Assembly (NCBI GenBank): GCA_015065065.1
Contig: SVQX01000006.1
Coordinates: 1-60,005 of the forward strand
Direction: 5' to 3'
From: Oscillospiraceae bacterium
GTDB taxonomy: Bacteria; Bacillota; Clostridia; Oscillospirales; CAG-272
Length of the DNA: 60,005 nt
In this document: positions 13,421-26,781 of the stretch, piece by piece
Layout of the letters: each line of letters starts with the position of its first letter
How positions within the stretch are numbered: the first letter of the stretch is position 1
Translations under genes and position numbers: made by a program
The notes under the pieces: model-generated
Database searches by the model: none
What the model was told of the DNA's origin: nothing
The model's input: only the letters and a program-made list of their open reading frames with translations

Positions 13421-15211
13421 GTGATGGCTTTGAAGCGTTTGTTCGGATACCTGCGTCCGTTTGGAAAACGGATGTCGGTAGGTCTTGTTATCAAGATCAT
13501 GGGAACGCTTGTCGAGCTGGCGCTCCCTTACATTCTGAGTATTATTTTAGACGAGGCAGTTCCCGCCGCGGCGGCGGCAGGGGACACGGGTGCGGGTATT
13601 CGAGGTATAATATTCTGGAGCTGTATGATGCTTGTTTGTACCGTCGCGGCTCTTGTGCTTAACATTACCGCCAACAGAATGGCGTCGGGTGTGGCAAAGG
13701 ACGCTGCGCGCAATATCCGTCACGACCTGTTCGACAGCACAATGCGGCTGTCCTGCAATCAGGTGGATGAGTTTACAGTTCCCAGCCTTGAATCCCGACT
13801 TACCTCTGACACCTACAACGTACATCACGTCATTGGAATGATACAGCGACTCGGAGTACGCGCGCCTATTCTGCTTATCGGCGGAATAGCCATTACATTG
13901 TCGCTTGACGCAACTCTTGCGCTTGTAATGCTTGCGGTACTGCCCTTTATATCGCTTACCGTATATATCGTTTCAAGGCGCGGTGTTAAGCTGTACCGCA
14001 ATTCGCAGCGAGCGGGTGACGAGATGGTGCGTATCGTCCGAGAGGACGTTCAGGGAATTCGCGTTATCAAGGCTCTGTCACGAAAGTATTACGAGCGGAA
14101 GCGGTATGCCGCCTCCGTGGACAAGCTGGTGGGAGCGGAAACAAAAGCCTCTCTTACCATGTCGATCTCCAATCCGCTGATGAATGTTTTTCTCAACCTC
14201 GGACTTGTTGCCGTGCTTTTTGTCGGCGCCTTGCGCGTTGACGGCGGCGAGTGCGCTCCGGGTAAGATAATTGCGTTCATTCAGTATTTTACGCTTATCT
14301 CAAACGCCATGCTGTTCGTCACGCGCATATTTATGATGTGTACCAAGGGTAGCGCGTCCATGAACAGAATTTGCGAGGTTATCGACGCGGCAAATGCTCA
14401 GCCTGCACAGGTAGAGGATCAGCCGTCCGATATCACGGGTGGCGACGGCGACTACCTCACGTTTGATGGAGTGGACTTCTCCTATTTCGGATACAAGGGT
14501 GGCGCACTTAATCTGTCGGACGTAAGCTTTTCGCTCCGACGGGGCGGCACGCTCGGAATTATCGGAGCTACGGGTAGCGGGAAGACTACGGTTTTGTCCT
14601 TGCTCATGCGCTTTTACGAGCTTCCGACAAATTGCGGCAGAATATTGCTGGATGGCAAGGATATCCGAGAGATACCTCCGCGTCAGCTCCGCCGTCGCGT
14701 GGGAATCGCTATGCAGAACGATTTTCTGTACGCGGGAACTATTGAAGAAAATATCGATTTTGGCAGAGGGCTGTCCCACGAGGAGATAGTCCGCGCCGCG
14801 GAAATAGCGCAGGCGGCTGATTTTATAGGTGCGCTTGCCGACGGCTACGAACACAAAATTACCGCGAAGGGTACTAACCTCAGCGGCGGACAAAAGCAGA
14901 GATTGCTTATCGCTCGCGCCGTTGCGGGAAATCCCGAAATACTTATCCTTGACGATGCATCCTCCGCGCTTGACTATCGCACCGATGCCGCGCTTCGCGC
15001 GCGACTCCGCGAGCTTGCGGGCGAGGGAGGCACTCCCATAACCTCTATCGTTGTTGCACAGCGTATAAGCTCGGTGCAGTATGCAGATCTTATACTCGTG
15101 CTTGACGGAGGAAAGATAATCGGAAGCGGAACCCACGAGGAGCTGCTTGAGAGCTGTGACGTGTACCGTGAGATATCCGAGTCGCAGATGGGAGGTGCTA
15201 TTCTTGACTAA
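13421..15211 (+). CDS. ABC exporter, fused TMD-NBD subunit A of a heterodimer (degenerate site)
   Basis: GATGSGKT, LSGGQKQR, ILDDASSALD and VAQRIS (degenerate Walker B and H-switch typical of heterodimeric exporters). Confidence 0.92.
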   Translation: MMALKRLFGYLRPFGKRMSVGLVIKIMGTLVELALPYILSIILDEAVPAAAAAGDTGAGIRGIIFWSCMMLVCTVAALVLNITANRMASGVAKDAARNIRHDLFDSTMRLSCNQVDEFTVPSLESRLTSDTYNVHHVIGMIQRLGVRAPILLIGGIAITLSLDATLALVMLAVLPFISLTVYIVSRRGVKLYRNSQRAGDEMVRIVREDVQGIRVIKALSRKYYERKRYAASVDKLVGAETKASLTMSISNPLMNVFLNLGLVAVLFVGALRVDGGECAPGKIIAFIQYFTLISNAMLFVTRIFMMCTKGSASMNRICEVIDAANAQPAQVEDQPSDITGGDGDYLTFDGVDFSYFGYKGGALNLSDVSFSLRRGGTLGIIGATGSGKTTVLSLLMRFYELPTNCGRILLDGKDIREIPPRQLRRRVGIAMQNDFLYAGTIEENIDFGRGLSHEEIVRAAEIAQAADFIGALADGYEHKITAKGTNLSGGQKQRLLIARAVAGNPEILILDDASSALDYRTDAALRARLRELAGEGGTPITSIVVAQRISSVQYADLILVLDGGKIIGSGTHEELLESCDVYREISESQMGGAILD

Positions 15212-17021
15212 GCGTAAGAATATGGCGGAGAATACCTCTCCCGCCGAGAAAAAGACCTCCCGCCGCCGCGTGCTGTGGCGCGTGTGCGGATATATTTTCG
15301 AGCATAAATGGCTTATGCTCACAGCCTTTGCAGTTATGCTCGTCGCAAATGTTATCGCGCTTGTCGCGCCTTACTATTCGGGACTTGTGATAAACGCTAT
15401 TGAGCCGGGGCGCGGCAGTGTGGATTTTGAAACGGTAGGCTACTACTGTACTTTGCTTGTGATCATATACGTCGTGTCGGCGGCGTTTACCTATCTTTTG
15501 TCCTTTATCATGGTAAGGATAAGCCAGCGCATAGGCGCAAGAATGCGCCGACAGGTGTTTGACCATTTGACGGATCTGCCCGTAAGCTATTTTGACAGCC
15601 ACCAGACGGGCGATATCATCAGCCACATCTCCTACGATATCGACACCGTAAATGCATCTCTTTCAAACGATCTGCTTCAGATAGCCACAAGTGTTATTAC
15701 GGTGGTCGGCTCGCTTGCAATGATGCTGTCCATATCTCCGATCTTGTCCCTTGTATTTGCGGTCACTGTGCCGATATCGCTTGTGTTTGCAAAGTACAGA
15801 ACGCAAAAGGTGCGCCCAATGTTCCGCAAGCGCTCCAAGAAGCTGGGAGAATTGAACGGCTATGCGGAGGAGATGCTGTCGGGACAGCGTACTATCAAGG
15901 CGTACAGCATTGAAAATGTCATAGTGGATCGCTTTGACGGACACAACGAGGACGCTTGCGACGCATATTACCGCGCCGACTACCACGGCTCCGTTATCGG
16001 ACCTACCATGATATTCATAAACAATCTGTCCCTGACGCTGATAACGGCGCTGGGCGGACTGTTCTATCTGTTCAGCATAACCGATCCGAACCTCCCGCTC
16101 ATATTTGTTATCGACCTTGGAATGGTGTCGGCATTCGTTCAGTATTCACGCAAATTCTTCGGTCCTATCAACGAGTTTGCAAATATTTTGAGCGAAATAC
16201 AGTAGGCTACCTCTGCCGCCGAGCGCGTATTTGCTCTGCTTGACGAGCCCACCGAGCCCGCGGACGGGGAGGATGCTGTCGTCCTCTCGGGTGCAGAGGG
16301 AGATATCAAAATGGAGGACGTGCGCTTCGGCTACACCGAGGCAAAGGAGATACTTCACGGCGTAAATATCCATGCCGAGCGGGGTAAAACTATTGCTATC
16401 GTAGGACCTACTGGAAGCGGAAAGACCACGGTCATCAATCTCCTTATGCGCTTTTACGATCATAATAGCGGTAAGATACTGTTCGACGACAAGGAGCTAT
16501 CAGGCCTTACCCGCGACAGCCTGCGCTCCGCGTATACCATGGTGCTTCAGGACACGTGGCTGTTCTGCGGAACGGTGCTTGACAATATTACCTACGGTAC
16601 TGACGGTGCGACGAGGGAGGACGTTATCCGCGCAGCGAAGGCGGCGCGTATCCACGACTTTATAATGACTCTACCCGAGGGATATGATACTGTCTTGTCG
16701 GACGACGGCGTTAATATATCCAAGGGACAAAAGCAGCTTATAACCATAGCCCGAGCTATGCTTTCCCGCGCGCCTGTCCTGATACTTGACGAGGCGACGT
16801 CAAACGTGGATTCACGCACTGAAAAGCTGATACAGAACGCGCTGTACGCGCTCATGTCGGGCAGAACGTGTATCGTTATCGCCCACAGACTTTCCACTAT
16901 CCAGAACGCAGACAGGATACTCGTGGTGCGCGACGGATGCATTGAGGAGCAGGGAACACATAACGAGCTGCTTGAACGAGGCGGATTTTACGCTTCTCTT
17001 TACAACGCACAATTCAAATAA
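15204..17021 (+). pseudogene. ABC exporter subunit B, interrupted by one in-frame TAG at 16203-16205
   Basis: TMD ORF and NBD ORF (GPTGSGKT, ISKGQKQ, LDEATS, IAHRLS) are in the same frame; junction reads SEIQ*ATSAAERVFALLD; could be a real nonsense allele, a consensus error or readthrough. Confidence 0.8.
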
Positions 17022-17036: not shown

Positions 17037-18050
17037 ATGAGCTCCGAAATGATACTCAAGGAATTTCCGCGCGGCGCGGATTGCCTTATTGACCTTCATC
17101 TTCATCTTGATGGCTCGCTGTCGGCGGACTGCGTGCGCCAACTTGGACAGATGCAGGAGATAGACGTTCCCGACGGCGACGTGCTTGACAGAATGCTGTC
17201 GGTGTCAGAGGGCTGCCGCGACCTTAACGAATATCTTGAAAAATTCGATTTTCCGCTGTCCCTGCTTCAAACCGAGGAGGCTATCGCATACGCGGTGCAG
17301 TCGCTGGAGGACAGATTGCTCGACGAGGGTGTAATGTATGCGGAGATACGCTTTGCACCCCAGCTTCATACGCGCAGAGGACTCACGCAAGAGCAGGTGG
17401 TGCGTGCCGCAATATACGGAAACAGCCGCTCGCCGCTTCGGGCAAGCCTTATTCTGTGCTGTATGCGAATGGGTGACAATAAGGCGGAAAATCTTGAAAG
17501 TATCCGCCTCGCTGCCAAGTATCTCGGATGCGGTGTGTGCGCCGCAGATTTGGCAGGTGCTGAGGCACTGTTTGAAAACGCGAGATTTGAGGAAGAATTT
17601 TCCCTCGCCCGTCAGCTTTGCCTGCCCTTTACTCTCCACGCAGGCGAGGCGTCGGGCGCTGATAGCGTGCGTACCGCTCTTGAGATGGGTGCGCGGCGTA
17701 TCGGTCACGGCGTGCGAAGCCTTGAGGACGGGGAAGTAGTCAAGTCCTTGGTCGAGCGAGAAATTCTCCTTGAGCTTTGTCCCACGAGTAATCTTAATAC
17801 GAACATGTTTGAAAACCTTTCGCAGTATCCTCTGCGGGAGCTGATGGCGGCGGGTGTTCGTGTCAGCATCAATACCGATAATACCGCCGTTTCCCGTACC
17901 TCCATAAGACGGGAGTGGGATTGCGTTATATCGCAGTTTTCGCTGACCGCGCAAGAGGTAAAAAAAATACTTTGCGACACGGCAGAGTCGTCCTTTGCGA
18001 ACGCTGAGACCGTGGCGTTTATGAAGGAAAAGATCCAAAACTGTTTTTGA
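17037..18050 (+). CDS. add: Adenosine deaminase
   Basis: DLHLHLDGS, YAEIRFAP, DLAGAE, HAGE, RIGHG, ELCPTSN, NTDN. Confidence 0.92.
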   Translation: MSSEMILKEFPRGADCLIDLHLHLDGSLSADCVRQLGQMQEIDVPDGDVLDRMLSVSEGCRDLNEYLEKFDFPLSLLQTEEAIAYAVQSLEDRLLDEGVMYAEIRFAPQLHTRRGLTQEQVVRAAIYGNSRSPLRASLILCCMRMGDNKAENLESIRLAAKYLGCGVCAADLAGAEALFENARFEEEFSLARQLCLPFTLHAGEASGADSVRTALEMGARRIGHGVRSLEDGEVVKSLVEREILLELCPTSNLNTNMFENLSQYPLRELMAAGVRVSINTDNTAVSRTSIRREWDCVISQFSLTAQEVKKILCDTAESSFANAETVAFMKEKIQNCF

Positions 18051-18874
18051 AAGCTGAACCTAAAATGAAACCCAAGAGAAAAATAATTGATGCACATACC
18101 CACATATTTCCCGACAAAATTGCCGAAAAGGTGTCCGAAAACATAGGAGCGTTTTACGGGCTGGATTGGTATAGCCCTGCGTCCGTCGGAAATCTTATCT
18201 CGGCGGGTAATGAGATCGGCGTTTGTCATTATCTCGTCTGCTCGACTGCTACCGTGGTGTCGCAGGTAGAGCATATCAACGATTTTATTGCCTCAGTCGC
18301 GGCGGCACATCCCGAATTTACCGCGCTGATGGCACTTCATCCCGACTTTGAAAATTACGAGGAGGAGCTTGACCGCGGAATGAAAATGGGACTTCGCGGA
18401 GTCAAGCTGCACCCCGATTTTCAACGCTTTAATATGGACGAGGAGCGGCTTATTCCCATGTACCGCGCTATCGCTAAAAGAGGACTTCCTTTGCTTATTC
18501 ACATGGGCGACGAGAGATATGAATACTCCCGTCCCTGCCGTCTGGCACAGCTTATGCGCGCTGTTCCCGATCTTACCGTCATAGCGGCGCACTTTGGCGG
18601 GTATCAGAGATGGGAGGAGGCACTTGACACCCTGCCGCCCTCCCCAAATCTGTGGTTTGACACGTCAAGCTCGCTGGGAATACTGTCCTACGACAACGCA
18701 ATGCGGCTTATGGAGCGGTTTGGAGTGAATAAATTTATGTTCGGTACGGATTTTCCGATATGGAGTCCCTCGGTTGAGGTCGAAAAGGTGGAAAAATTAC
18801 CCCTGTCTGACGCGGAATTTGAGCTTGTATTCTCCGAAAACTTCAAAAGATTGTTCAATATGTCCAATGTTTGA
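18047..18874 (+). CDS. Amidohydrolase family (Amidohydro_2-like) protein
   Basis: IIDAHTH, GVKLHP, LIHMG, AAHFGG, FGTDFP; start may instead be ATG 18065. Confidence 0.85.
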   Translation: MKAEPKMKPKRKIIDAHTHIFPDKIAEKVSENIGAFYGLDWYSPASVGNLISAGNEIGVCHYLVCSTATVVSQVEHINDFIASVAAAHPEFTALMALHPDFENYEEELDRGMKMGLRGVKLHPDFQRFNMDEERLIPMYRAIAKRGLPLLIHMGDERYEYSRPCRLAQLMRAVPDLTVIAAHFGGYQRWEEALDTLPPSPNLWFDTSSSLGILSYDNAMRLMERFGVNKFMFGTDFPIWSPSVEVEKVEKLPLSDAEFELVFSENFKRLFNMSNV

Positions 18875-18911: not shown

Positions 18912-18940
18912 TTGACAAATCGGCGGCGAGTGATTATAAT
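18912..18940 (+). promoter_or_regulatory. sigma-A promoter of the T-box operon
   Basis: TTGACA 18912-18917, 17 bp spacer, TATAAT 18935-18940. Confidence 0.88.
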
Positions 18941-18957
18941 ATTTAGTATAAAAGCAA

Positions 18958-19231
18958 AATGCGTTGATGGAATTAAGGACTTCGTTACAGCACACAGAGA
19001 GTTGGCGGTGGGTGCGAGCCAATGCGTAGGGACGAAGCTGCTGTCTCATTCCGGAGCAGGACTTTTGAAACAACAGTAAAGAGTCACGGGAGCGCCCGTT
19101 AAAGCGCGGCGGTTTGAAAGTGAACCGTATGAGAGGTCGCCTGTATCTTGGCGGCAAGCGGGGTGGTACCGCGACTGAAATGTATTTCAGCCGTCCCCAT
19201 GGCATTAAGTCATGGAGGCGGCTTTCGTTTT
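18958..19231 (+). ncRNA. T-box riboswitch, probable Leu (CUC) specifier
   Basis: Stem I with AGAGA and GGTGCGA motifs, CTC-A at 19045-19048, T-box aagcggggtggtaccgcg 19156-19173, terminator agccgtccccatgg...catggaggcggct-ttcgtttt 19189-19231. Confidence 0.9.
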
Positions 19232-19267: not shown

Positions 19268-20683
19268 ATGAAAAAAGTAATATTTACCGATGTGACCTTG
19301 CGCGATAGCTTCAAGGGAGGCGAGTGTGTTTATACCTTTAAGGAAAGAGTGGAGATAGCAAAGGTGCTGGATAAGCTGCACGTTGACAGAATTTGTCTTT
19401 CTCCCATAGAAAACGTGACGGCTGACACAATGATAGTACGCACTATGGCGGCGGTGGTAAAAAACAGCGTGCTGTCCATGCCCGTAGGATTTACGGCTGA
19501 GTCTGTTGACCTTGCGTGGAATGCAGTGTCCGTTGCGAAAAAGCCCGAGCTGCTTGTTGCCGTTCCCACGTCGGCGGTGCAGATGGAATACATCTGCCAC
19601 AGAAAAGCGCCCAAGGTAATGGAAATGATTTCGGAGCTTGTAGGCGCGGCAAGAGTTAAATGTGAGCGAGTAAACTTCGCGGCTGTTGATGCGACCAGAA
19701 GCGACATGCCAATTCTCGCCGAAGCAATAAAGACAGCGGTCGATAACGGCGCGACAGAGGTAACTCTGTGCGACAGCGCGGGAATTTTCCTGCCTGATGA
19801 GATGGCGAATTTTATTGCTGACGTTATGGCGGCGGCTCCCGTTATTGCGGAAAAGGGAATTGCTGTAAGCGTACAATGCTCCAATGCCCTCAGCGTAGGT
19901 GCGGCGTGCGCCGTAGCGGCTGTCAAGAACGAAGCTGTGTGCGGCGTTTGCGTGTCCGTCGGTGGCGGTGACAGCGCGCCTGCTCTTTCCGAAATGGCAC
20001 AGATAATGAGAATAAAGGGCGACGATTGCGGCTTTTCGTGTGGCATCAAGACCACCGAGCTTCAGCGCTCGCTCCGTCAGCTCGGGCTTGTGGAAAAGAT
20101 CGCGGGCGGAGCGGCTCAGGCAGAGTCGGCGGATTCCACGGAGAGCTTCGTGCTTGACAAAAACGACGATATTGCCACCGTTGCGAAGGCGATAAAAAAG
20201 CTGGGCTACGACCTGTCCGACGAGGACGTGTCTAAGGTATACGAGTCCTTCTGCACCGTCGCCAAGCAAAAGACGGTGGATGCCCGCGAGCTTGACGCTA
20301 TTATTGCGTCGGTTGCGCTGCAGGTGCCTCCAACGTACCGACTTATAAGCTACGTTATCAACAGTGGCAGTCACATCTCCTCTACCGCCAATATTCAGGT
20401 AGAGAAGGACGGCGAAATGATAAGCGAGGTGTGCGCGGGATTTGGACCTATCGACGCGGCATTTCTGGCTGTTGATGCCGTGGTAGGCACGAGATACGAG
20501 CTGGACGATTTCCAGATACAGTCCGTGACCGAGGGCAAGGAGGCTATGGGAAGCGCACTGGTTCGACTTCGCGCAGGCGGAAAGCTGTATTCGGGAACGG
20601 GCATCTCCACCGATATAATCGGTGCGTCCATTCGTGCTTACGTCAACGCCATCAACAAGATAGCCTACGAAGAAAAGGTTTGA
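19268..20683 (+). CDS. 2-isopropylmalate synthase (LeuA)-like protein; catalytic motifs degenerate, C-terminal regulatory domain retained
   Basis: DVTLRDSFK for DTTLRDGEQ, QCSNA for HxHND, no GERxGN; C-terminal GFGPIDA...STDIIGASIRAYVNAINK. Confidence 0.85.
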   Translation: MKKVIFTDVTLRDSFKGGECVYTFKERVEIAKVLDKLHVDRICLSPIENVTADTMIVRTMAAVVKNSVLSMPVGFTAESVDLAWNAVSVAKKPELLVAVPTSAVQMEYICHRKAPKVMEMISELVGAARVKCERVNFAAVDATRSDMPILAEAIKTAVDNGATEVTLCDSAGIFLPDEMANFIADVMAAAPVIAEKGIAVSVQCSNALSVGAACAVAAVKNEAVCGVCVSVGGGDSAPALSEMAQIMRIKGDDCGFSCGIKTTELQRSLRQLGLVEKIAGGAAQAESADSTESFVLDKNDDIATVAKAIKKLGYDLSDEDVSKVYESFCTVAKQKTVDARELDAIIASVALQVPPTYRLISYVINSGSHISSTANIQVEKDGEMISEVCAGFGPIDAAFLAVDAVVGTRYELDDFQIQSVTEGKEAMGSALVRLRAGGKLYSGTGISTDIIGASIRAYVNAINKIAYEEKV

Positions 20684-20701: not shown

Positions 20702-23218
20702 ATGAAGCTGTCATTTTCCACAAAGGGCTGGGACTCCTATACCTGGGCGCAGTTTTGTGACAAGGCGGAGGAGCTTGGCTTTAACGGCATAGAAATTCAT
20801 GATATACACCACCCCGCATTCACGGGTAAGAACGATGTTTTTGACCCGACCATGATCCGCGCTACGTACAGAAATCTCGTCGACCGAGGACTTTGTGTAC
20901 CCTGTGTTGATACTGCGGCGAATATTGCCGACGGCGATAGCCTTGACGCGGGTGTTAGCGAGATTACCGAATGTATCCGCACGGCGGCGGCGTTGCACAT
21001 TCCCTTCGTGCGCATACACACCACGGGTGCGAAGGATAAGGACGCGGCGGAGGTGGACACCACCGTTTGCAGGTATCTTGATGCGCTTCGTCCCGTGGCT
21101 GTCGGCTCTGAAGTGACGCTTATAATCGAAACCGTCGATGCTTACGCCGATACGCATAGACTTAAAAACGTGCTTGATACCTATGCCGATGATAATATCG
21201 GCGCTCTGTGGGATATGCACCACACCTACCGCATGGGCGGCGAGAGCGCGCAGACGTCGCTTCAAAACCTCGGCGCATATATTCGCCATATTCACCTCAA
21301 GGACTCGGAGGTGGTAGGGGACAGAGTGGAATATCGCCTTATCGGTGAGGGCTCTCTCCCTCTTGACGACATGATGAAGGCGCTCCGCTCTATCAATTAC
21401 GAGGGCTTTATCTCACTTGAATGGGACCCCACGTGGCTTAGTGAGCTTGCGGATATGGATATTATATTCCTGCACTTTACGAGCTATATGTCAAAATACG
21501 AGAGCGGTGTCCGCAAAAAGCGCAAGAAGCTGTATGAAAACAAGACTCACACGGGCAAATTTGTGTGGCAGAAGGACTCGCTTATCGATATGACCTTCTC
21601 GGAGGTGCTGGATAAGCAGGTGGAGGAATTTCCGGATCAGTACGCCTTTAAGTATACCACGCTTGACTATACCCGTACCTACGAGGAGTTCCGCGACGAC
21701 GTGGATACCTTTGCCCGCGCGCTGGTGGATATGGGGGTTAAGGCGGGAACGCACGTTGCCGTCTGGGCTACGAATATACCGCAATGGTACATCACCTTCT
21801 GGGCAACGGTAAAGCTGGGCGCGGTGCTTGTTACCGTAAATACGGCTTACAAGGTACACGAGGCAGAATATCTGTTCCGTCAGTCGGACACCCATACGCT
21901 TGTTATGGTGGAGGGCTACCGCGACTCAAATTATAAGGAAATAATAAAGGAGCTTTGCCCCGAGCTTGAAAACCACCGTGCGGGAGAGCCGCTCCATGCA
22001 AAGCGTCTGCCTTTCTTGCGCAATGTCATCACCGTCGGCTTCCGGCAGAAGGGATGTCAGACGTGGGACGAGGCTGTGGCAAGACACGACCGCGTGCCGC
22101 TTGAGGAGGTCCGCAGAATGGCGGCGAAGGTATCTCCTCAGGACGTTTGTAATATGCAGTATACCTCGGGTACGACGGGCTTCCCCAAGGGAGTAATGCT
22201 TACCCATTATAACGTAGTCAACAACGGTAAATGTATCGGCGACCGAATGGATTTGTCTACCGCCGACAGAATGATGATACAGGTACCCATGTTCCATTGC
22301 TTCGGAATGGTGCTGTCCATGACGGCGACCATGACGCACGGAGGAACGCTGTACCCAATTCCTTATTTCTCCCCGAAATCCGCATTGGCTTGCATTGACA
22401 AGGAGCATATCACAGCATTCAACGGCGTGCCCACAATGTTTATCGCCATGTTTAACCACGAGGATTACAGAAAGACGGATTTCTCATACATGAGAACGGG
22501 AATCATGGCAGGCGCGAATTGCCCCGCCGACCTTATGAAGCGCGCAGCACAGCCGGACGAGATGAATATGACGGGAATCGTCAGCGTTTACGGACAAACG
22601 GAGGCTTCTCCGGGCTGCACCATGGGCGAGATAGACGAGCCGCTTGACGAAAGATGCGAAACGGTGGGAAGGGCATTCCCGCACGTTGAATGTAAGATTA
22701 TAGACCCCGAAACGGGACTTGATTGCCCCGACGGAGTGAACGGTGAATTTGTTGCGCGAGGCTACAACGTCATGAAGGGATATTACAAAATGCCCGAGGC
22801 GACTGCGGCTACGATCGATGCTGACGGATGGCTCCATTCGGGTGATATCGCCTGCCGCGAGCCGAGCGGCACCTATCGCATCACGGGCAGACTGAAGGAT
22901 ATGATAATCCGCGGCGGCGAGAACATCTATCCCAAGGAGATAGAGGAATTTCTCTACACCAGCCCCAAGGTAAAGGACGTTCAGGTCATAGGAGTTCCCG
23001 ACAAGCAGTACGGCGAGGAAATAATGGCTTGTATCATTCTCAAGGAGGGAGAGGAGTCCTCGGTCGAGGAAATGAAGGCGTTTGTCGCATCTCATATGGC
23101 AAGGCATAAGGTGCCGAAGTATATAGAGTTTGTAAATTCCTTCCCCATGAACGCCGCAGGCAAGATACTCAAGTATAAGATGCGCGAGGCGGCGGCAGAG
23201 AAATACGGGCTTAACTGA
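20702..23218 (+). CDS. Fusion of a xylose-isomerase-like (AP_endonuc_2) TIM barrel and an AMP-dependent acyl-CoA synthetase
   Basis: N-terminal IET, WDMHH, HIHLKD, SLEW metal-site motifs; C-terminal YTSGTTGFPKG, YGQTE, WLHSGD, GRLKDMIIRGGENI, GKILK. Confidence 0.9.
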   Translation: MKLSFSTKGWDSYTWAQFCDKAEELGFNGIEIHDIHHPAFTGKNDVFDPTMIRATYRNLVDRGLCVPCVDTAANIADGDSLDAGVSEITECIRTAAALHIPFVRIHTTGAKDKDAAEVDTTVCRYLDALRPVAVGSEVTLIIETVDAYADTHRLKNVLDTYADDNIGALWDMHHTYRMGGESAQTSLQNLGAYIRHIHLKDSEVVGDRVEYRLIGEGSLPLDDMMKALRSINYEGFISLEWDPTWLSELADMDIIFLHFTSYMSKYESGVRKKRKKLYENKTHTGKFVWQKDSLIDMTFSEVLDKQVEEFPDQYAFKYTTLDYTRTYEEFRDDVDTFARALVDMGVKAGTHVAVWATNIPQWYITFWATVKLGAVLVTVNTAYKVHEAEYLFRQSDTHTLVMVEGYRDSNYKEIIKELCPELENHRAGEPLHAKRLPFLRNVITVGFRQKGCQTWDEAVARHDRVPLEEVRRMAAKVSPQDVCNMQYTSGTTGFPKGVMLTHYNVVNNGKCIGDRMDLSTADRMMIQVPMFHCFGMVLSMTATMTHGGTLYPIPYFSPKSALACIDKEHITAFNGVPTMFIAMFNHEDYRKTDFSYMRTGIMAGANCPADLMKRAAQPDEMNMTGIVSVYGQTEASPGCTMGEIDEPLDERCETVGRAFPHVECKIIDPETGLDCPDGVNGEFVARGYNVMKGYYKMPEATAATIDADGWLHSGDIACREPSGTYRITGRLKDMIIRGGENIYPKEIEEFLYTSPKVKDVQVIGVPDKQYGEEIMACIILKEGEESSVEEMKAFVASHMARHKVPKYIEFVNSFPMNAAGKILKYKMREAAAEKYGLN

Positions 23219-23235: not shown

Positions 23236-26200
23236 ATGAGCGAAAATAACAAGAATTTTAAACGGGAGACCGTTACAATGGACGGTAACGAGGCGGCGGC
23301 GCATATAGCTTACGCCTTTACCGAGGTGGCGGCGATATATCCCATAACCCCCTCATCTCCCATGGCCGGCAAGACGGATGCGTGGAGTGCGAAGGGCAAG
23401 AAAAACCTTTTCGGTCAGCCTGTGACTCTTGTTGAGATGCAGTCAGAGGCGGGAGCGGCAGCGGCAGTACACGGCGCGCTCGAATCGGGCTCGCTTGCCA
23501 CCTCCTTCACCTCATCGCAGGGACTTATGCTGATGATCCCCGTAATGCACCGCATTTCGGGACAGCTGCACCCCGGCGTGCTTCACGTTGCATCTCGCAC
23601 CGTGGGAACTCACGCATTTTCGATCTTCGGAGATCATTCGGACGTTATGAACTGCCGTCAGACCGGCTTTGCTATGCTGTCCACGGCAAGCGTTCAGGAA
23701 ATAATGGATATTTCGGCAGCGGCGCACCTTGCCGCTATCGAGAGCCGTGTGCCGTTCCTGCATTTCTTTGACGGCTTCCGTACATCACACGAAATTTCCA
23801 AGGTGGAGCTTATGCCCTACGAGGCGCTCGCTCCGCTTGTAAACTACGACGCGCTTGAAGCCTTCCGCGCTCACGCACTTAATCCCGAGCATCCGCTCCT
23901 GCGCTCCACCGTGCAGAATCCGGATATATATTTCCAAGTCCGTGAAGCGTCAAACGCTTATTACGACAGCCTGCCCGATATTGTTGAAAAATATCTCGGC
24001 GAGCTGAGTAAGATATGCGGCAGGGAATACCACCTCTTTAACTACTACGGTGATAAGGATGCAGAGGATATCATTATCGCTATGGGCTCGGTCAGCGGAA
24101 CGGTAAAGGAAACGGTGGACTACCTCAACGCAAAGGGACGCCGCGTCGGCTTTTTGCAGGTACACCTGTTCCGCCCCTTCTCGTTTGAGTATTTCCGCAA
24201 GGCTATCCCGGCATCCGTCAAGCGCATAGCAGTGCTTGACCGTTGCAAGGAGATGGGCGCCGCGGGTGAGCCGCTGTATCAGGATGTGCGCACCGCATTT
24301 TACGACGACGCGCAGAACGGAACCGCGCCGCTGGTTATCGGCGGAAGATACGGTTTGTCCTCCAAGGACACCGATCCCGCGCAGATAATCGCCGTATTTG
24401 ATAATCTTGCATCCGATAATCCCAAGAACGGATTTACTATCGGTATTGAGGACGACGTTACTCGCCATTCTCTGAAGCTGACCGAGCGCGTATATCCCGA
24501 TGACGAAAGGTACGAGCAGATAAACTGCAAATTCTGGGGACTCGGCTCTGACGGTACGGTAGGCGCAAATAAGTCAACCGTTGAGATAGTCAGCCAGCAT
24601 ACCGATAAATACGGTCAGGCGTACTTTGAGTACGATGCGAAAAAGTCTTACGGAGTAACCAAATCGCACCTTCGCTTTTCAGATTATCCCATTCGCTCCA
24701 GCCATTTCGTAAAGCACGCGGATTTCGTCGCGTGTCATAATCCTACATACGTATACCACTACGATATGATCTCCGAGCTGAAGGAGGGCGGCACGTTCCT
24801 GCTTGCCTGCCCGTGGAGCGCCGAGGAGCTTGAAGTAAAACTGCCCGCCTCCGTCAAGCGCGATTTGGCAGCTAAACACGCAAGCTTCTACGTAATCGAC
24901 GCGGCGAAAATAGCCGCAGAGTGCGGGCTTGGCAATCACACCAATATGGTGCTTCAATCTGCCTTTTTCCACCTGTCGGGACTGCTTCCCATAGACGAAG
25001 CGATGGACTATATGAAGGCGGGCGTGCGCAAGATGTACTTCGCCAAGGGCGAGGATGTAGTAAACAACAATATTGCCGCAATAGAGCGTGGCGGCTCGGG
25101 GCTTGTAAGGATCGAGATACCGTCCGCGTGGGCTGATGCCGTGAATGAAAACGGTAACGCTGCGAACGACCGCCCCGACGTTGTAAAGAATATTCTTGAG
25201 CCTATCAACGCTCAAAAGGGCGATGACCTGCCCGTTTCCGCCTTCAAGGGCTACGAGGACGGCGCTATCCAAATGGGACTTACCGCCTACGAAAAGCGCG
25301 CTATTGCAACCAAGGTTCCCGTTTGGAATCCCGAGGCATGCCTGCAATGTAACAGATGTTCTTATGTCTGCCCCCACGCGGTGATCCGTCCTTATCTTTT
25401 GGACGAGGCCGAAAGTGCTGGCGCGCCTGCCGATATGAAGCTTGTCCCCGCCAAGGGTGTCAAGGGACTTAAGCTGGATTATACCTTACAGATAAGTCGC
25501 GACGACTGCACGGGCTGCTCCTCCTGCGTAAACTGCTGTCCCGCAAAGGATAAGGCGCTTCGTATGGTGAGCGTTGATGAGGCAGAGGACACGTCGGCGG
25601 CTTGGGAGTACGGACTTGGAGTCAGCGAAAAGAGCAACATTTTTGATATCTACACCGTAAAGGGAAGCCAGTTCAAGCAGCCGCTTCTTGAATTTTCTGC
25701 GGCGTGCGCCGGATGCGGCGAAACGCCTTACGCGAAGCTGCTCACCCAGCTTGTCGGCGACAGAGTATATTGGGCAAACGCTACGGGCTGCTCGCAGGCG
25801 TGGGGCTCCCCCATGCCGGGAATTCCTTATACCACTAATAAAAAGGGGCATGGCCCCGCGTGGTCGAACTCGCTGTTTGAAAACAATGCGGAATTTTCCC
25901 TCGGTATGTGTCTGTCCGTCAAGATGCAAAGGCAGGCACAGCTCATCCGTGCAAAGAGATTGAGGGATATGGTTGAGGGTAATGCCGCGCTTGCATCCGC
26001 ACTTGACGCATGGATCGCCGATTTTGACAGCATGGACGACTCTCGTAAATCAGGCGAAGCCCTTGTAACCGCGCTTGAAGCCTGCACTCTTGACGGAGCG
26101 GCTGACGGCGTAAAGAGGGATATCCTTATCCACCGCGACCAGCTGTCCAAAAAGAGCTTCTGGATGTTCGGCGGCGATGGCTGGGCATATGATATCGGCT

Positions 26201-26781
26201 TTGGCGGACTTGATCACGTGCTTGCACAGGGCGAGCCCGTAAAGGTGTTTATCGTTGATACCGAGGTGTATTCCAACACGGGCGGACAGTCGTCAAAGGC
26301 GACACCTCTCGGTGCTGTGGCGCAGTTCTGCGCATCGGGCAAGAAGAGTCCCAAGAAGGACCTTGGCGCAATACTTATGACCTATGGAAACGTGTACGTC
26401 GCGCAGGTCGCGATGGGCGCGGACTATAATCAGACGGTCAAGGCGATAAAGGAGGCGGAGGCGTTTGACGGTCCTGCCGTGATCATCGCGTATACTCCTT
26501 GCTCTGCGCACGGAATCCGAGGCGGACTCGGCAACGCGCAGATGGAGATGAAGCGCGCGGTTGATGCGGGATATTGGAAGCTGTACCGCTTTGATCCGTC
26601 AAAGGAACAGCCGCTTACCCTTGATTCTGGCGAGCCCACCTTGAATTTTGAGGACTTCCTCATGGGAGAGGTGAGATATTCGTCTCTGACGCGCACCTTC
26701 CCCGAAAACGCTAAGGAAATGTTTAAGGAGGCGGGAGAATCCGCTGCCCGCGACTACGAAAAGTATAAGAATATGAAATAA
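23236..26781 (+). CDS. Single-chain 2-oxoacid:ferredoxin oxidoreductase (PFOR/NifJ family)
   Basis: YPITPSS, EMQSEAGA, GLGSDGTVGANK, two CxxCxxCxxxCP motifs, ACAGCGE, GGDGWAYDIG, YSNTGGQ; 1181 aa. Confidence 0.95.
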   Translation: MSENNKNFKRETVTMDGNEAAAHIAYAFTEVAAIYPITPSSPMAGKTDAWSAKGKKNLFGQPVTLVEMQSEAGAAAAVHGALESGSLATSFTSSQGLMLMIPVMHRISGQLHPGVLHVASRTVGTHAFSIFGDHSDVMNCRQTGFAMLSTASVQEIMDISAAAHLAAIESRVPFLHFFDGFRTSHEISKVELMPYEALAPLVNYDALEAFRAHALNPEHPLLRSTVQNPDIYFQVREASNAYYDSLPDIVEKYLGELSKICGREYHLFNYYGDKDAEDIIIAMGSVSGTVKETVDYLNAKGRRVGFLQVHLFRPFSFEYFRKAIPASVKRIAVLDRCKEMGAAGEPLYQDVRTAFYDDAQNGTAPLVIGGRYGLSSKDTDPAQIIAVFDNLASDNPKNGFTIGIEDDVTRHSLKLTERVYPDDERYEQINCKFWGLGSDGTVGANKSTVEIVSQHTDKYGQAYFEYDAKKSYGVTKSHLRFSDYPIRSSHFVKHADFVACHNPTYVYHYDMISELKEGGTFLLACPWSAEELEVKLPASVKRDLAAKHASFYVIDAAKIAAECGLGNHTNMVLQSAFFHLSGLLPIDEAMDYMKAGVRKMYFAKGEDVVNNNIAAIERGGSGLVRIEIPSAWADAVNENGNAANDRPDVVKNILEPINAQKGDDLPVSAFKGYEDGAIQMGLTAYEKRAIATKVPVWNPEACLQCNRCSYVCPHAVIRPYLLDEAESAGAPADMKLVPAKGVKGLKLDYTLQISRDDCTGCSSCVNCCPAKDKALRMVSVDEAEDTSAAWEYGLGVSEKSNIFDIYTVKGSQFKQPLLEFSAACAGCGETPYAKLLTQLVGDRVYWANATGCSQAWGSPMPGIPYTTNKKGHGPAWSNSLFENNAEFSLGMCLSVKMQRQAQLIRAKRLRDMVEGNAALASALDAWIADFDSMDDSRKSGEALVTALEACTLDGAADGVKRDILIHRDQLSKKSFWMFGGDGWAYDIGFGGLDHVLAQGEPVKVFIVDTEVYSNTGGQSSKATPLGAVAQFCASGKKSPKKDLGAILMTYGNVYVAQVAMGADYNQTVKAIKEAEAFDGPAVIIAYTPCSAHGIRGGLGNAQMEMKRAVDAGYWKLYRFDPSKEQPLTLDSGEPTLNFEDFLMGEVRYSSLTRTFPENAKEMFKEAGESAARDYEKYKNMK

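Follow-up and report, generated by a model that had tools for sequence, protein, structure and literature searches.

The gene at positions 19268-20683 of a 60,005-nucleotide (nt) stretch of DNA from an Oscillospiraceae bacterium (assembly GCA_015065065.1, contig SVQX01000006.1; this whole stretch is called the window below) encodes a relative of 2-isopropylmalate synthase (LeuA) that has lost the metal site of the enzyme and kept its regulatory domain. It lies behind a leucine-specific T-box leader and directly ahead of a gene for an acyl-coenzyme A (acyl-CoA) ligase. In our best reading, to which we give about an even chance, the protein has no catalytic role and senses leucine as a partner of this ligase, which would activate isovalerate.

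Loss of the active site in the LeuA-like protein

The open reading frame (ORF) is divided as follows:

19268-20683, + strand: LeuA-like ORF, 471 amino acids (aa), full length
19268-20077, + strand: N-terminal TIM barrel without HxH metal site, residues 1-270 (Pfam, alignment, model)
20078-20272, + strand: linker and accessory subdomain, residues 271-335 (model; 42% identity in the family)
20273-20683, + strand: LeuA_dimer regulatory domain, residues 336-471, and stop codon (Pfam, model, family conservation)

Pfam matches an HMGL-like barrel at residues 3-266 (95.9 bits) and LeuA_dimer at residues 337-465 (106.1 bits). The combination of barrel fold and C-terminal LeuA_dimer domain that characterizes LeuA is present according to Pfam, the structural model and Foldseek. 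All NCBIfam models for LeuA, CimA and NifV (homocitrate synthase) score the protein far under their cut-offs. The best score was obtained with NF002086 (264.1 bits versus a cut-off of 532), and TIGR00973 gave 246.7 bits versus a cut-off of 598.7.

The roles of metal-binding and catalytic residues in LeuA-type enzymes are taken here from general knowledge of the family. An earlier note on this DNA had quoted a set of motif strings, all of which are found in the 471-residue ORF at the places given there. It had read QCSNA (residues 203-207, 19874-19888) as standing in place of the metal-binding HxH, and GGGDSAP (residues 232-238, 19961-19981) as replacing GERxGN. Both readings are borne out by alignment to solved LeuA barrels (3ewb, 3rmj): QCSNA lies opposite HCHND, with Q203 and S205 occupying both His positions, and GGGDSAP, which is variable across the family, lies opposite GERAGN. 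The proposed erosion of DVTLRDSFK (residues 8-16, 19289-19315) holds for the GEQ part, which is gone, and not for the R-D pair, which is still there (R12, D13). The protein is thus without both His residues, the Glu of the xEDAxR motif (V140 instead), and the GEQ and GERxGN motifs. The C-terminal motifs are GFGPIDA (residues 391-397, 20438-20458), QSVTEGKEAMG (residues 418-428, 20519-20551) and STDIIGAS (residues 447-454, 20606-20629).

Conservation and selection in the family

Many full-length relatives (about 470 residues, roughly 50% identity) are found in Clostridia and Synergistota, some of them labeled by NCBI as 'alpha-isopropylmalate synthase regulatory domain-containing protein' and one of them from Synergistes jonesii, and a relative is encoded in at least 595 species genomes. 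As in the window, the active site is lost throughout the family. Among 112 aligned members, none has a His at either HxH position, the metal Asp is retained in 15, the catalytic Arg in 77 and the Glu of the xEDAxR motif in 42. C204 is conserved in 107 members, and no other conserved His or Cys cluster stands out in this alignment.

The three parts of the protein are not equally conserved. Mean pairwise identity among the 112 members is 47% for the barrel, 42% for the linker and 72% for the regulatory domain. When 15 true LeuA proteins from genomes of the same order were used as a reference, columns conserved to at least 90% in LeuA were retained by the family in 18 of 68 cases in the barrel, 3 of 15 in the linker and 12 of 14 in the regulatory domain. 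The C-terminal domain is therefore as well kept as had been claimed.

The earlier note had proposed per-domain dN/dS ratios (nonsynonymous to synonymous substitution rates) among orthologs as a check, and had named accumulating stops and frameshifts as the outcome that would speak for simple decay. No internal stop was found in 73 of 74 full-length orthologous coding sequences (CDS). By the Nei-Gojobori method, dN/dS was 0.04-0.16 in the barrel and 0-0.13 in the regulatory domain, indicating purifying selection in both (30 pairs; there were 32 pairs with at least 75% identity, from which those with the one broken copy were left out). The intact CDS and the low ratios exclude simple decay and show that the barrel itself is still constrained. 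The family in this respect resembles pseudoenzymes that serve as regulatory subunits, which are paralogs of active enzymes without the catalytic residues but under purifying selection.

The only broken copy (locus L072, 1763-3169) lies on a contig of a Lachnospiraceae metagenome-assembled genome, where an internal stop splits the LeuA-like gene into two ORFs.

Predicted structure

The AlphaFold model of the LeuA-like protein has a mean predicted local distance difference test (pLDDT) score of 89.9, and of about 95 over the barrel. It consists of the barrel, a disordered stretch (residues 275-291), a helical subdomain and two beta-beta-beta-alpha units. With Foldseek, the Listeria LeuA barrel 3ewb matched the model with a template modeling (TM) score of 0.91 and a root-mean-square deviation of 2.2, and the model was aligned along its full length, in about 545 columns, to full-length Mycobacterium tuberculosis LeuA (leucine-bound 3fig; 1sr9). 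A PDB sequence search with the protein found no full-length bacterial-type LeuA, and the only PDB sequence match of the regulatory domain was the Leptospira citramalate synthase domain (E-value 0.0018). The parts of PMC10464499 and PMC9860122 that were available contain no listing of leucine-pocket residues.

Control by a leucine-specific T-box

Three elements precede the LeuA-like gene:

18912-18940, + strand: sigma-70-type promoter-like site (TTGACA, 17 nt, TATAAT; 12/12 consensus match)
18955-19201, + strand: T-box leader (RF00230, full model 1-219)
19190-19231, + strand: probable T-box terminator (G+C-rich inverted repeat, 9-nt loop, T-rich tail; read by eye from the sequence)

The T-box leader scores 110.3 bits against RF00230 (gathering score 93, E-value 3e-24). 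Its specifier codon, read from the RF00230 alignment and the sequence, is the Leu codon CUC (19045-19047), with A as the next nucleotide; positions 19161-19173 hold the conserved T-box sequence. A leader above the gathering score, with a Leu specifier and directly upstream of the gene, is thus present, and a T-box with a CUC specifier implies that the operon is switched on by leucine shortage. The promoter-like site, 15 nt upstream of the T-box, was identified by its consensus match only. A terminator scan, which allowed loops of up to 8 nt, gave no call at 19190-19231, where the loop has 9 nt.

Leucine control is not particular to the window. Among 71 related loci with enough upstream sequence, 61 have a T-box sequence at most 260 nt upstream of the family gene; the other ten either lack 215 nt of upstream sequence or have no match with at most two mismatches. 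In the aligned specifier column (window included), a Leu codon was found in all 62 leaders, 61 times CTC and once CTG.

Genes next to the LeuA-like gene

The neighboring genes of interest are:

18047-18874, + strand: Amidohydro_2 protein (Pfam), upstream of the promoter-like site in the window
20702-21511, + strand: xylose-isomerase-like TIM barrel domain of a fusion protein, residues 1-270 (E143/D171/H198/E240 quartet intact)
21569-23218, + strand: AMP-forming acyl-CoA ligase domain of the same fusion, residues about 290-838 (Pfam, NCBIfam)
23236-26781, + strand: single-chain enzyme of the pyruvate:ferredoxin oxidoreductase (PFOR) type (TIGR02176, 1698 bits)

The barrel::ligase fusion gene (20702-23218) follows directly after the LeuA-like gene. 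A link to the ligase had been suggested for the window, and it proved general: the fusion is directly downstream of the LeuA-like gene in 77 of 80 loci, and the contigs of the other three end at most 180 nt after the family gene. The gap is 4-50 nt in most of the 77 loci and up to about 150 nt in a few. In 40 orthologs of the fusion, mean identity is 78.5% for the ligase domain and 47.5% for the fused barrel. By sequence, the ligase of the window is a generic ANL-family enzyme. The model of the fused barrel has a pLDDT of 94, with ketose 3-epimerase and IolI-type barrels as nearest folds, a likeness that is generic only.

The PFOR gene starts 18 nt after the ligase stop codon and is the second of two PFOR-type genes in the genome, both of which score above the TIGR02176 cut-off. 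Its product is 52% identical to the other paralog (locus L094, G000:C62) and 63-70% identical to operon-linked PFORs of distant taxa. The closer relation to the latter suggests a dedicated PFOR subfamily. In 81 neighborhoods, genes for PFOR or 2-oxoacid:ferredoxin oxidoreductase (OFOR) were found in 35, and for an IlvE-like aminotransferase in 19.

Of 80 loci, 41 carry the Amidohydro_2 gene; it was also recorded in 39 neighborhoods, mostly immediately behind the ligase gene. The Amidohydro_2 product has no NCBIfam match, and its best PDB relatives are uncharacterized proteins. PDB and fold searches for this protein and for the fused barrel returned generic relatives only and no function.

Distribution in the order

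We analyzed 101 genomes of the order, including that of the window. Scores with the family profile were bimodal: 21 genomes had a member (at least 505 bits), and true LeuA scored 343-407 bits. TIGR00973 exceeded its cut-off in 42 genomes, namely 0 of the 21 with a LeuA-like gene of the present family and 42 of the 80 without, a complementary distribution of the two genes. In 21 of 21 carrier genomes the barrel::ligase gene begins 4-18 nt after the LeuA-like gene.

Some genomes of the sample encode the fusion without a LeuA-like gene, and 13 such loci were inspected (L111-L123, from genomes G091, G084, G064, G003, G038, G085, G023, G002, G009, G045, G096, G063 and G070). The metal quartet of the fused barrel (E143, D171, H198, E240) is intact in 13 of 13 fusions without a LeuA-like partner, as it is in the window. 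Among 40 fusions with the partner, D171 is kept in 22 and E240 in 23, and the quartet is eroded in about 40%. No Amidohydro_2 gene was found within about 4 kb of the 13 partnerless ligase genes. The idea that the fused barrel serves only to dock the LeuA-like protein is weakened, since the fusion also occurs without this protein.

At one of these loci (L111, G091:C35:9500-18500), the T-box and the barrel::ligase gene are immediately preceded, on the same strand, by a true leuA and a CimA-like gene; this arrangement may be ancestral. In seven genomes (G013, G097, G052, G071, G078, G026, G037) one or two in-frame stops interrupt the match to the barrel::ligase profile, and barrel and ligase may be two separate genes in some lineages.

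Leucine pathway genes in the genome of the window

The genome (1.89 Mb, 95.9% complete) contains no other LeuA-type gene. One other HMGL-like gene is present; it lies beside a gene for a membrane subunit and looks like a carboxyltransferase gene as judged by eye. The sole Iso_dh protein is an NADP-isocitrate dehydrogenase (653 bits versus 335), and the sole aconitase-family protein is a 756-aa PRK11413 hydratase. Neither leuB nor leuC was found, although an incomplete assembly cannot prove absence. The co-occurrence with leuB and leuCD that is typical for LeuA is therefore not seen in this genome. IlvE (480 bits versus 307, on another contig) and IlvD are encoded. All three enzyme types that a route from isovalerate to leucine would require are present, namely the ligase and PFOR, both in the operon, and IlvE.

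Related operons behind branched-chain T-boxes

Many Oscillospiraceae- and Acutalibacteraceae-type loci have a second operon behind T-box leaders of its own (examples at L037:732, L030:886, L066:12220 and L013:7183). It encodes a helix-turn-helix-cupin::acyl-CoA ligase, a P-loop (CbiA-like) protein, OFOR alpha, beta and gamma subunits and a class IV aminotransferase. The specifiers of 17 leaders, read by eye, were GUA/GUC (Val) in 9, AUC (Ile) in 7 and CUC (Leu) in 1. This pattern of operons and T-boxes is consistent with a salvage in which isobutyrate yields valine, 2-methylbutyrate isoleucine and isovalerate leucine. The second operon was not found in the genome of the window, and none of its five AMP-binding matches is a ligase of about 760 aa.

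Proposed function and alternatives

The operon most likely serves the salvage of isovalerate into leucine. The LeuA-like protein would be a catalytically inactive descendant of 2-isopropylmalate synthase that keeps the fold and the LeuA-type regulatory domain. Its expression, from a single transcript under T-box control that also covers the acyl-CoA ligase and the second PFOR paralog, would be limited to conditions in which tRNA-Leu is uncharged. The ligase, with isovalerate as its probable substrate, would form isovaleryl-CoA, PFOR or OFOR would carboxylate this reductively to 2-oxoisocaproate, and transamination by IlvE would give leucine. In the carrier genomes, this would be the only route to leucine.

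Within this scheme, leucine would bind in the regulatory domain, as suggested by motif conservation, and the LeuA-like protein, in a complex with the ligase fusion suggested by synteny, would throttle the committed activation step. Inhibition of the ligase would provide fast end-product feedback on top of the slower T-box control. As to the origin of the arrangement, a tentative scenario, possible if on balance doubtful, is that the allosteric module of LeuA outlived the isopropylmalate pathway and was reused in trans on isovalerate activation, and that the metal site of the fused barrel eroded afterwards. The replacement pathway would in this way have inherited end-product control.

Several observations weigh against a leucine-sensing partner of the ligase. 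The T-box alone already provides leucine feedback. The barrel, although dead, is under strong purifying selection and has invariant polar residues (D8, D53, S102, K113, D141 and R144 in 112 of 112 members, D169 in 111), which a pure sensor role leaves unexplained and which might reflect a ligand site that has been kept, or some other activity. Neither the Amidohydro_2 gene nor the barrel fused to the ligase has a role in the model. A fused LeuA-like::ligase protein was not found at an E-value of 1e-40, which is weak evidence. The genomes of the order sample are related, so that the counts of carriers and non-carriers overstate independence, and 4 of the 21 carriers are less than 90% complete.

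The ligase also occurs on its own. Full-length barrel::ligase without the LeuA-like copy is encoded in 16 genomes of the sample, ten of them with true leuA, and in the 13 inspected loci of these 16 genomes no LeuA-like gene adjoins the ligase. Ten of the 13 loci nevertheless have a T-box sequence some 100-130 nt ahead of the ligase, with CUC as the specifier (by eye) in nine of the ten. A ligase-only ortholog, without the barrel (48-57% identity), is found in about 28 more genomes. In ten such loci (L124-L133), a T-box sequence is directly upstream in 7; of four leaders read by eye, three have CUC and the fourth is unclear. The leucine-controlled ligase is the core of the system, and the LeuA-like protein is an add-on, seen in the sample only where leuA was not found. 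It is accordingly an accessory and not an obligatory subunit. This qualifies the proposal of the earlier note, a leucine-sensing subunit or scaffold for the neighboring ligase or oxidoreductase, for which the dead site, selection, the LeuA-type domain, synteny with the ligase and the leucine T-box all speak.

The strongest alternative, in our view still unlikely, is a structural or assembly subunit. The protein, as a dimer, would be a scaffold of ligase and OFOR, or would hold CoA or isovaleryl-CoA in the old acetyl-CoA/oxoacid cleft and pass the thioester on to reductive carboxylation, leucine sensing being secondary or absent. The low dN/dS of the barrel and the invariant D8, D141, R144 and D169, which line the region of the old site, would be explained, and OFOR or PFOR genes are frequent neighbors, with the PFOR paralog in the same operon in the window. 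However, it is the regulatory domain and not the barrel that is most conserved, fewer than half of the neighborhoods (the 35 of 81 above) have PFOR or OFOR next to the gene, and the ligase is found without the LeuA-like protein in other genomes. The selected barrel, with its remaining set of Asp, Arg, Lys and Ser residues, would also be expected if the protein were still an enzyme whose chemistry has changed, working without a metal or with other ligands, for example on a CoA thioester or a 2-oxoacid of the leucine salvage route. The Amidohydro_2 protein might then take part, as its gene was seen only at loci with the LeuA-like gene. We consider this quite improbable, because all known metal and catalytic residues of LeuA-type enzymes are variable in the family, the GEQ and GERxGN loops are gone, and apart from C204 no alternative His or Cys cluster is conserved.

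Retention of the LeuA-type regulatory domain is also compatible with a protein that binds leucine or another branched-chain metabolite and acts on a different target (PFOR/OFOR, IlvE or a transporter), and the ligase does not need the LeuA-like protein elsewhere. Against such a target, which we judge very unlikely, the ligase is the only invariant neighbor, the others vary, and the usual gap of 4-18 nt to the ligase gene suggests coupled translation. That the gene is a functionless pseudogene in decay is hardly conceivable. Its catalytic motifs are lost, and one ortholog in 74 is broken; the remaining orthologs are intact with dN/dS well below 1 in both domains, relatives are as widespread as described above, and a T-box and a promoter of its own precede the gene. 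A leucine-sensing partner of the ligase thus remains our best reading.

Relation to known systems

Compared with bacterial LeuA (TIGR00973/PRK00915), the LeuA-like protein has the barrel, the accessory subdomain and the regulatory domain of two beta-beta-beta-alpha units in common, as well as the regulatory motifs (the 12 of 14 conserved columns), and LeuA models score it higher than CimA models do (264 versus 37 bits). It differs in the loss of HxH, GEQ and GERxGN, in the variability of the catalytic Glu, Arg and Asp, and in scoring under every curated cut-off. It is also about 30 residues shorter, is paired with a ligase instead of leuBCD, and is found where leuA was not found (in the genome of the window, also leuB and leuC).

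HisZ, a dead paralog of histidyl-tRNA synthetase, is the histidine-sensing regulatory subunit of the short-form ATP phosphoribosyltransferase HisG. The logic proposed here would be analogous, a dead paralog from the same amino acid system regulating a different committed-step enzyme in trans. For HisZ-HisG, complex and regulation have been demonstrated experimentally, whereas here they are proposed, and neither the ancestral enzyme nor the partner is related to those of the HisZ system.

For decades it has been known that anaerobes of the rumen and the gut use branched short-chain fatty acids as precursors of leucine, valine and isoleucine, and classical labeling work showed that they carboxylate isovalerate reductively to leucine. 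The operons match this route, in that a ligase, a 2-oxoacid:ferredoxin oxidoreductase and a branched-chain aminotransferase are encoded in or beside them. Our literature search, which did not cover supplements, found no gene assigned to the acid-activating step, no regulatory protein for the isovalerate route and no paper linking this gene set to isovalerate salvage. It also found no paper describing the present family or pairing 'pseudoenzyme' with 'isopropylmalate synthase'.

Leu-specific T-box leaders are described for leuA of Geobacter and, in Firmicutes, for the ilv-leu and leuS operons (PMC2700814). The leader of the window resembles these in being full-length, in scoring above the gathering score, and in its CUC specifier and conserved T-box sequence. 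The genes under its control are those for a dead LeuA, an acyl-CoA ligase and a PFOR paralog; in contrast to the described leaders, no recognizable enzyme of leucine biosynthesis or tRNA synthetase is among their products.

The locus provides testable candidates behind a leucine switch, namely the ligase, the dedicated oxidoreductase paralog and the sensor protein. If the sensor role is correct, the family would clearly exemplify a dead enzyme that persists as an allosteric subunit of an unrelated one. The proposed system would also be of use in predicting isovalerate dependence among gut and rumen bacteria, and could be a source of a leucine-responsive module for engineering.

Other observations in the window

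The start of the Amidohydro_2 gene (18047-18874) shares 4 nt with an adenosine deaminase gene (17037-18050). Further upstream, after the ABC exporter gene at 13421-15211, a second ABC exporter gene appears as two ORFs, one for the membrane part (15147-16205) and one for the ATPase part (16311-17021), which could reflect a split gene, a frameshift or an assembly error.

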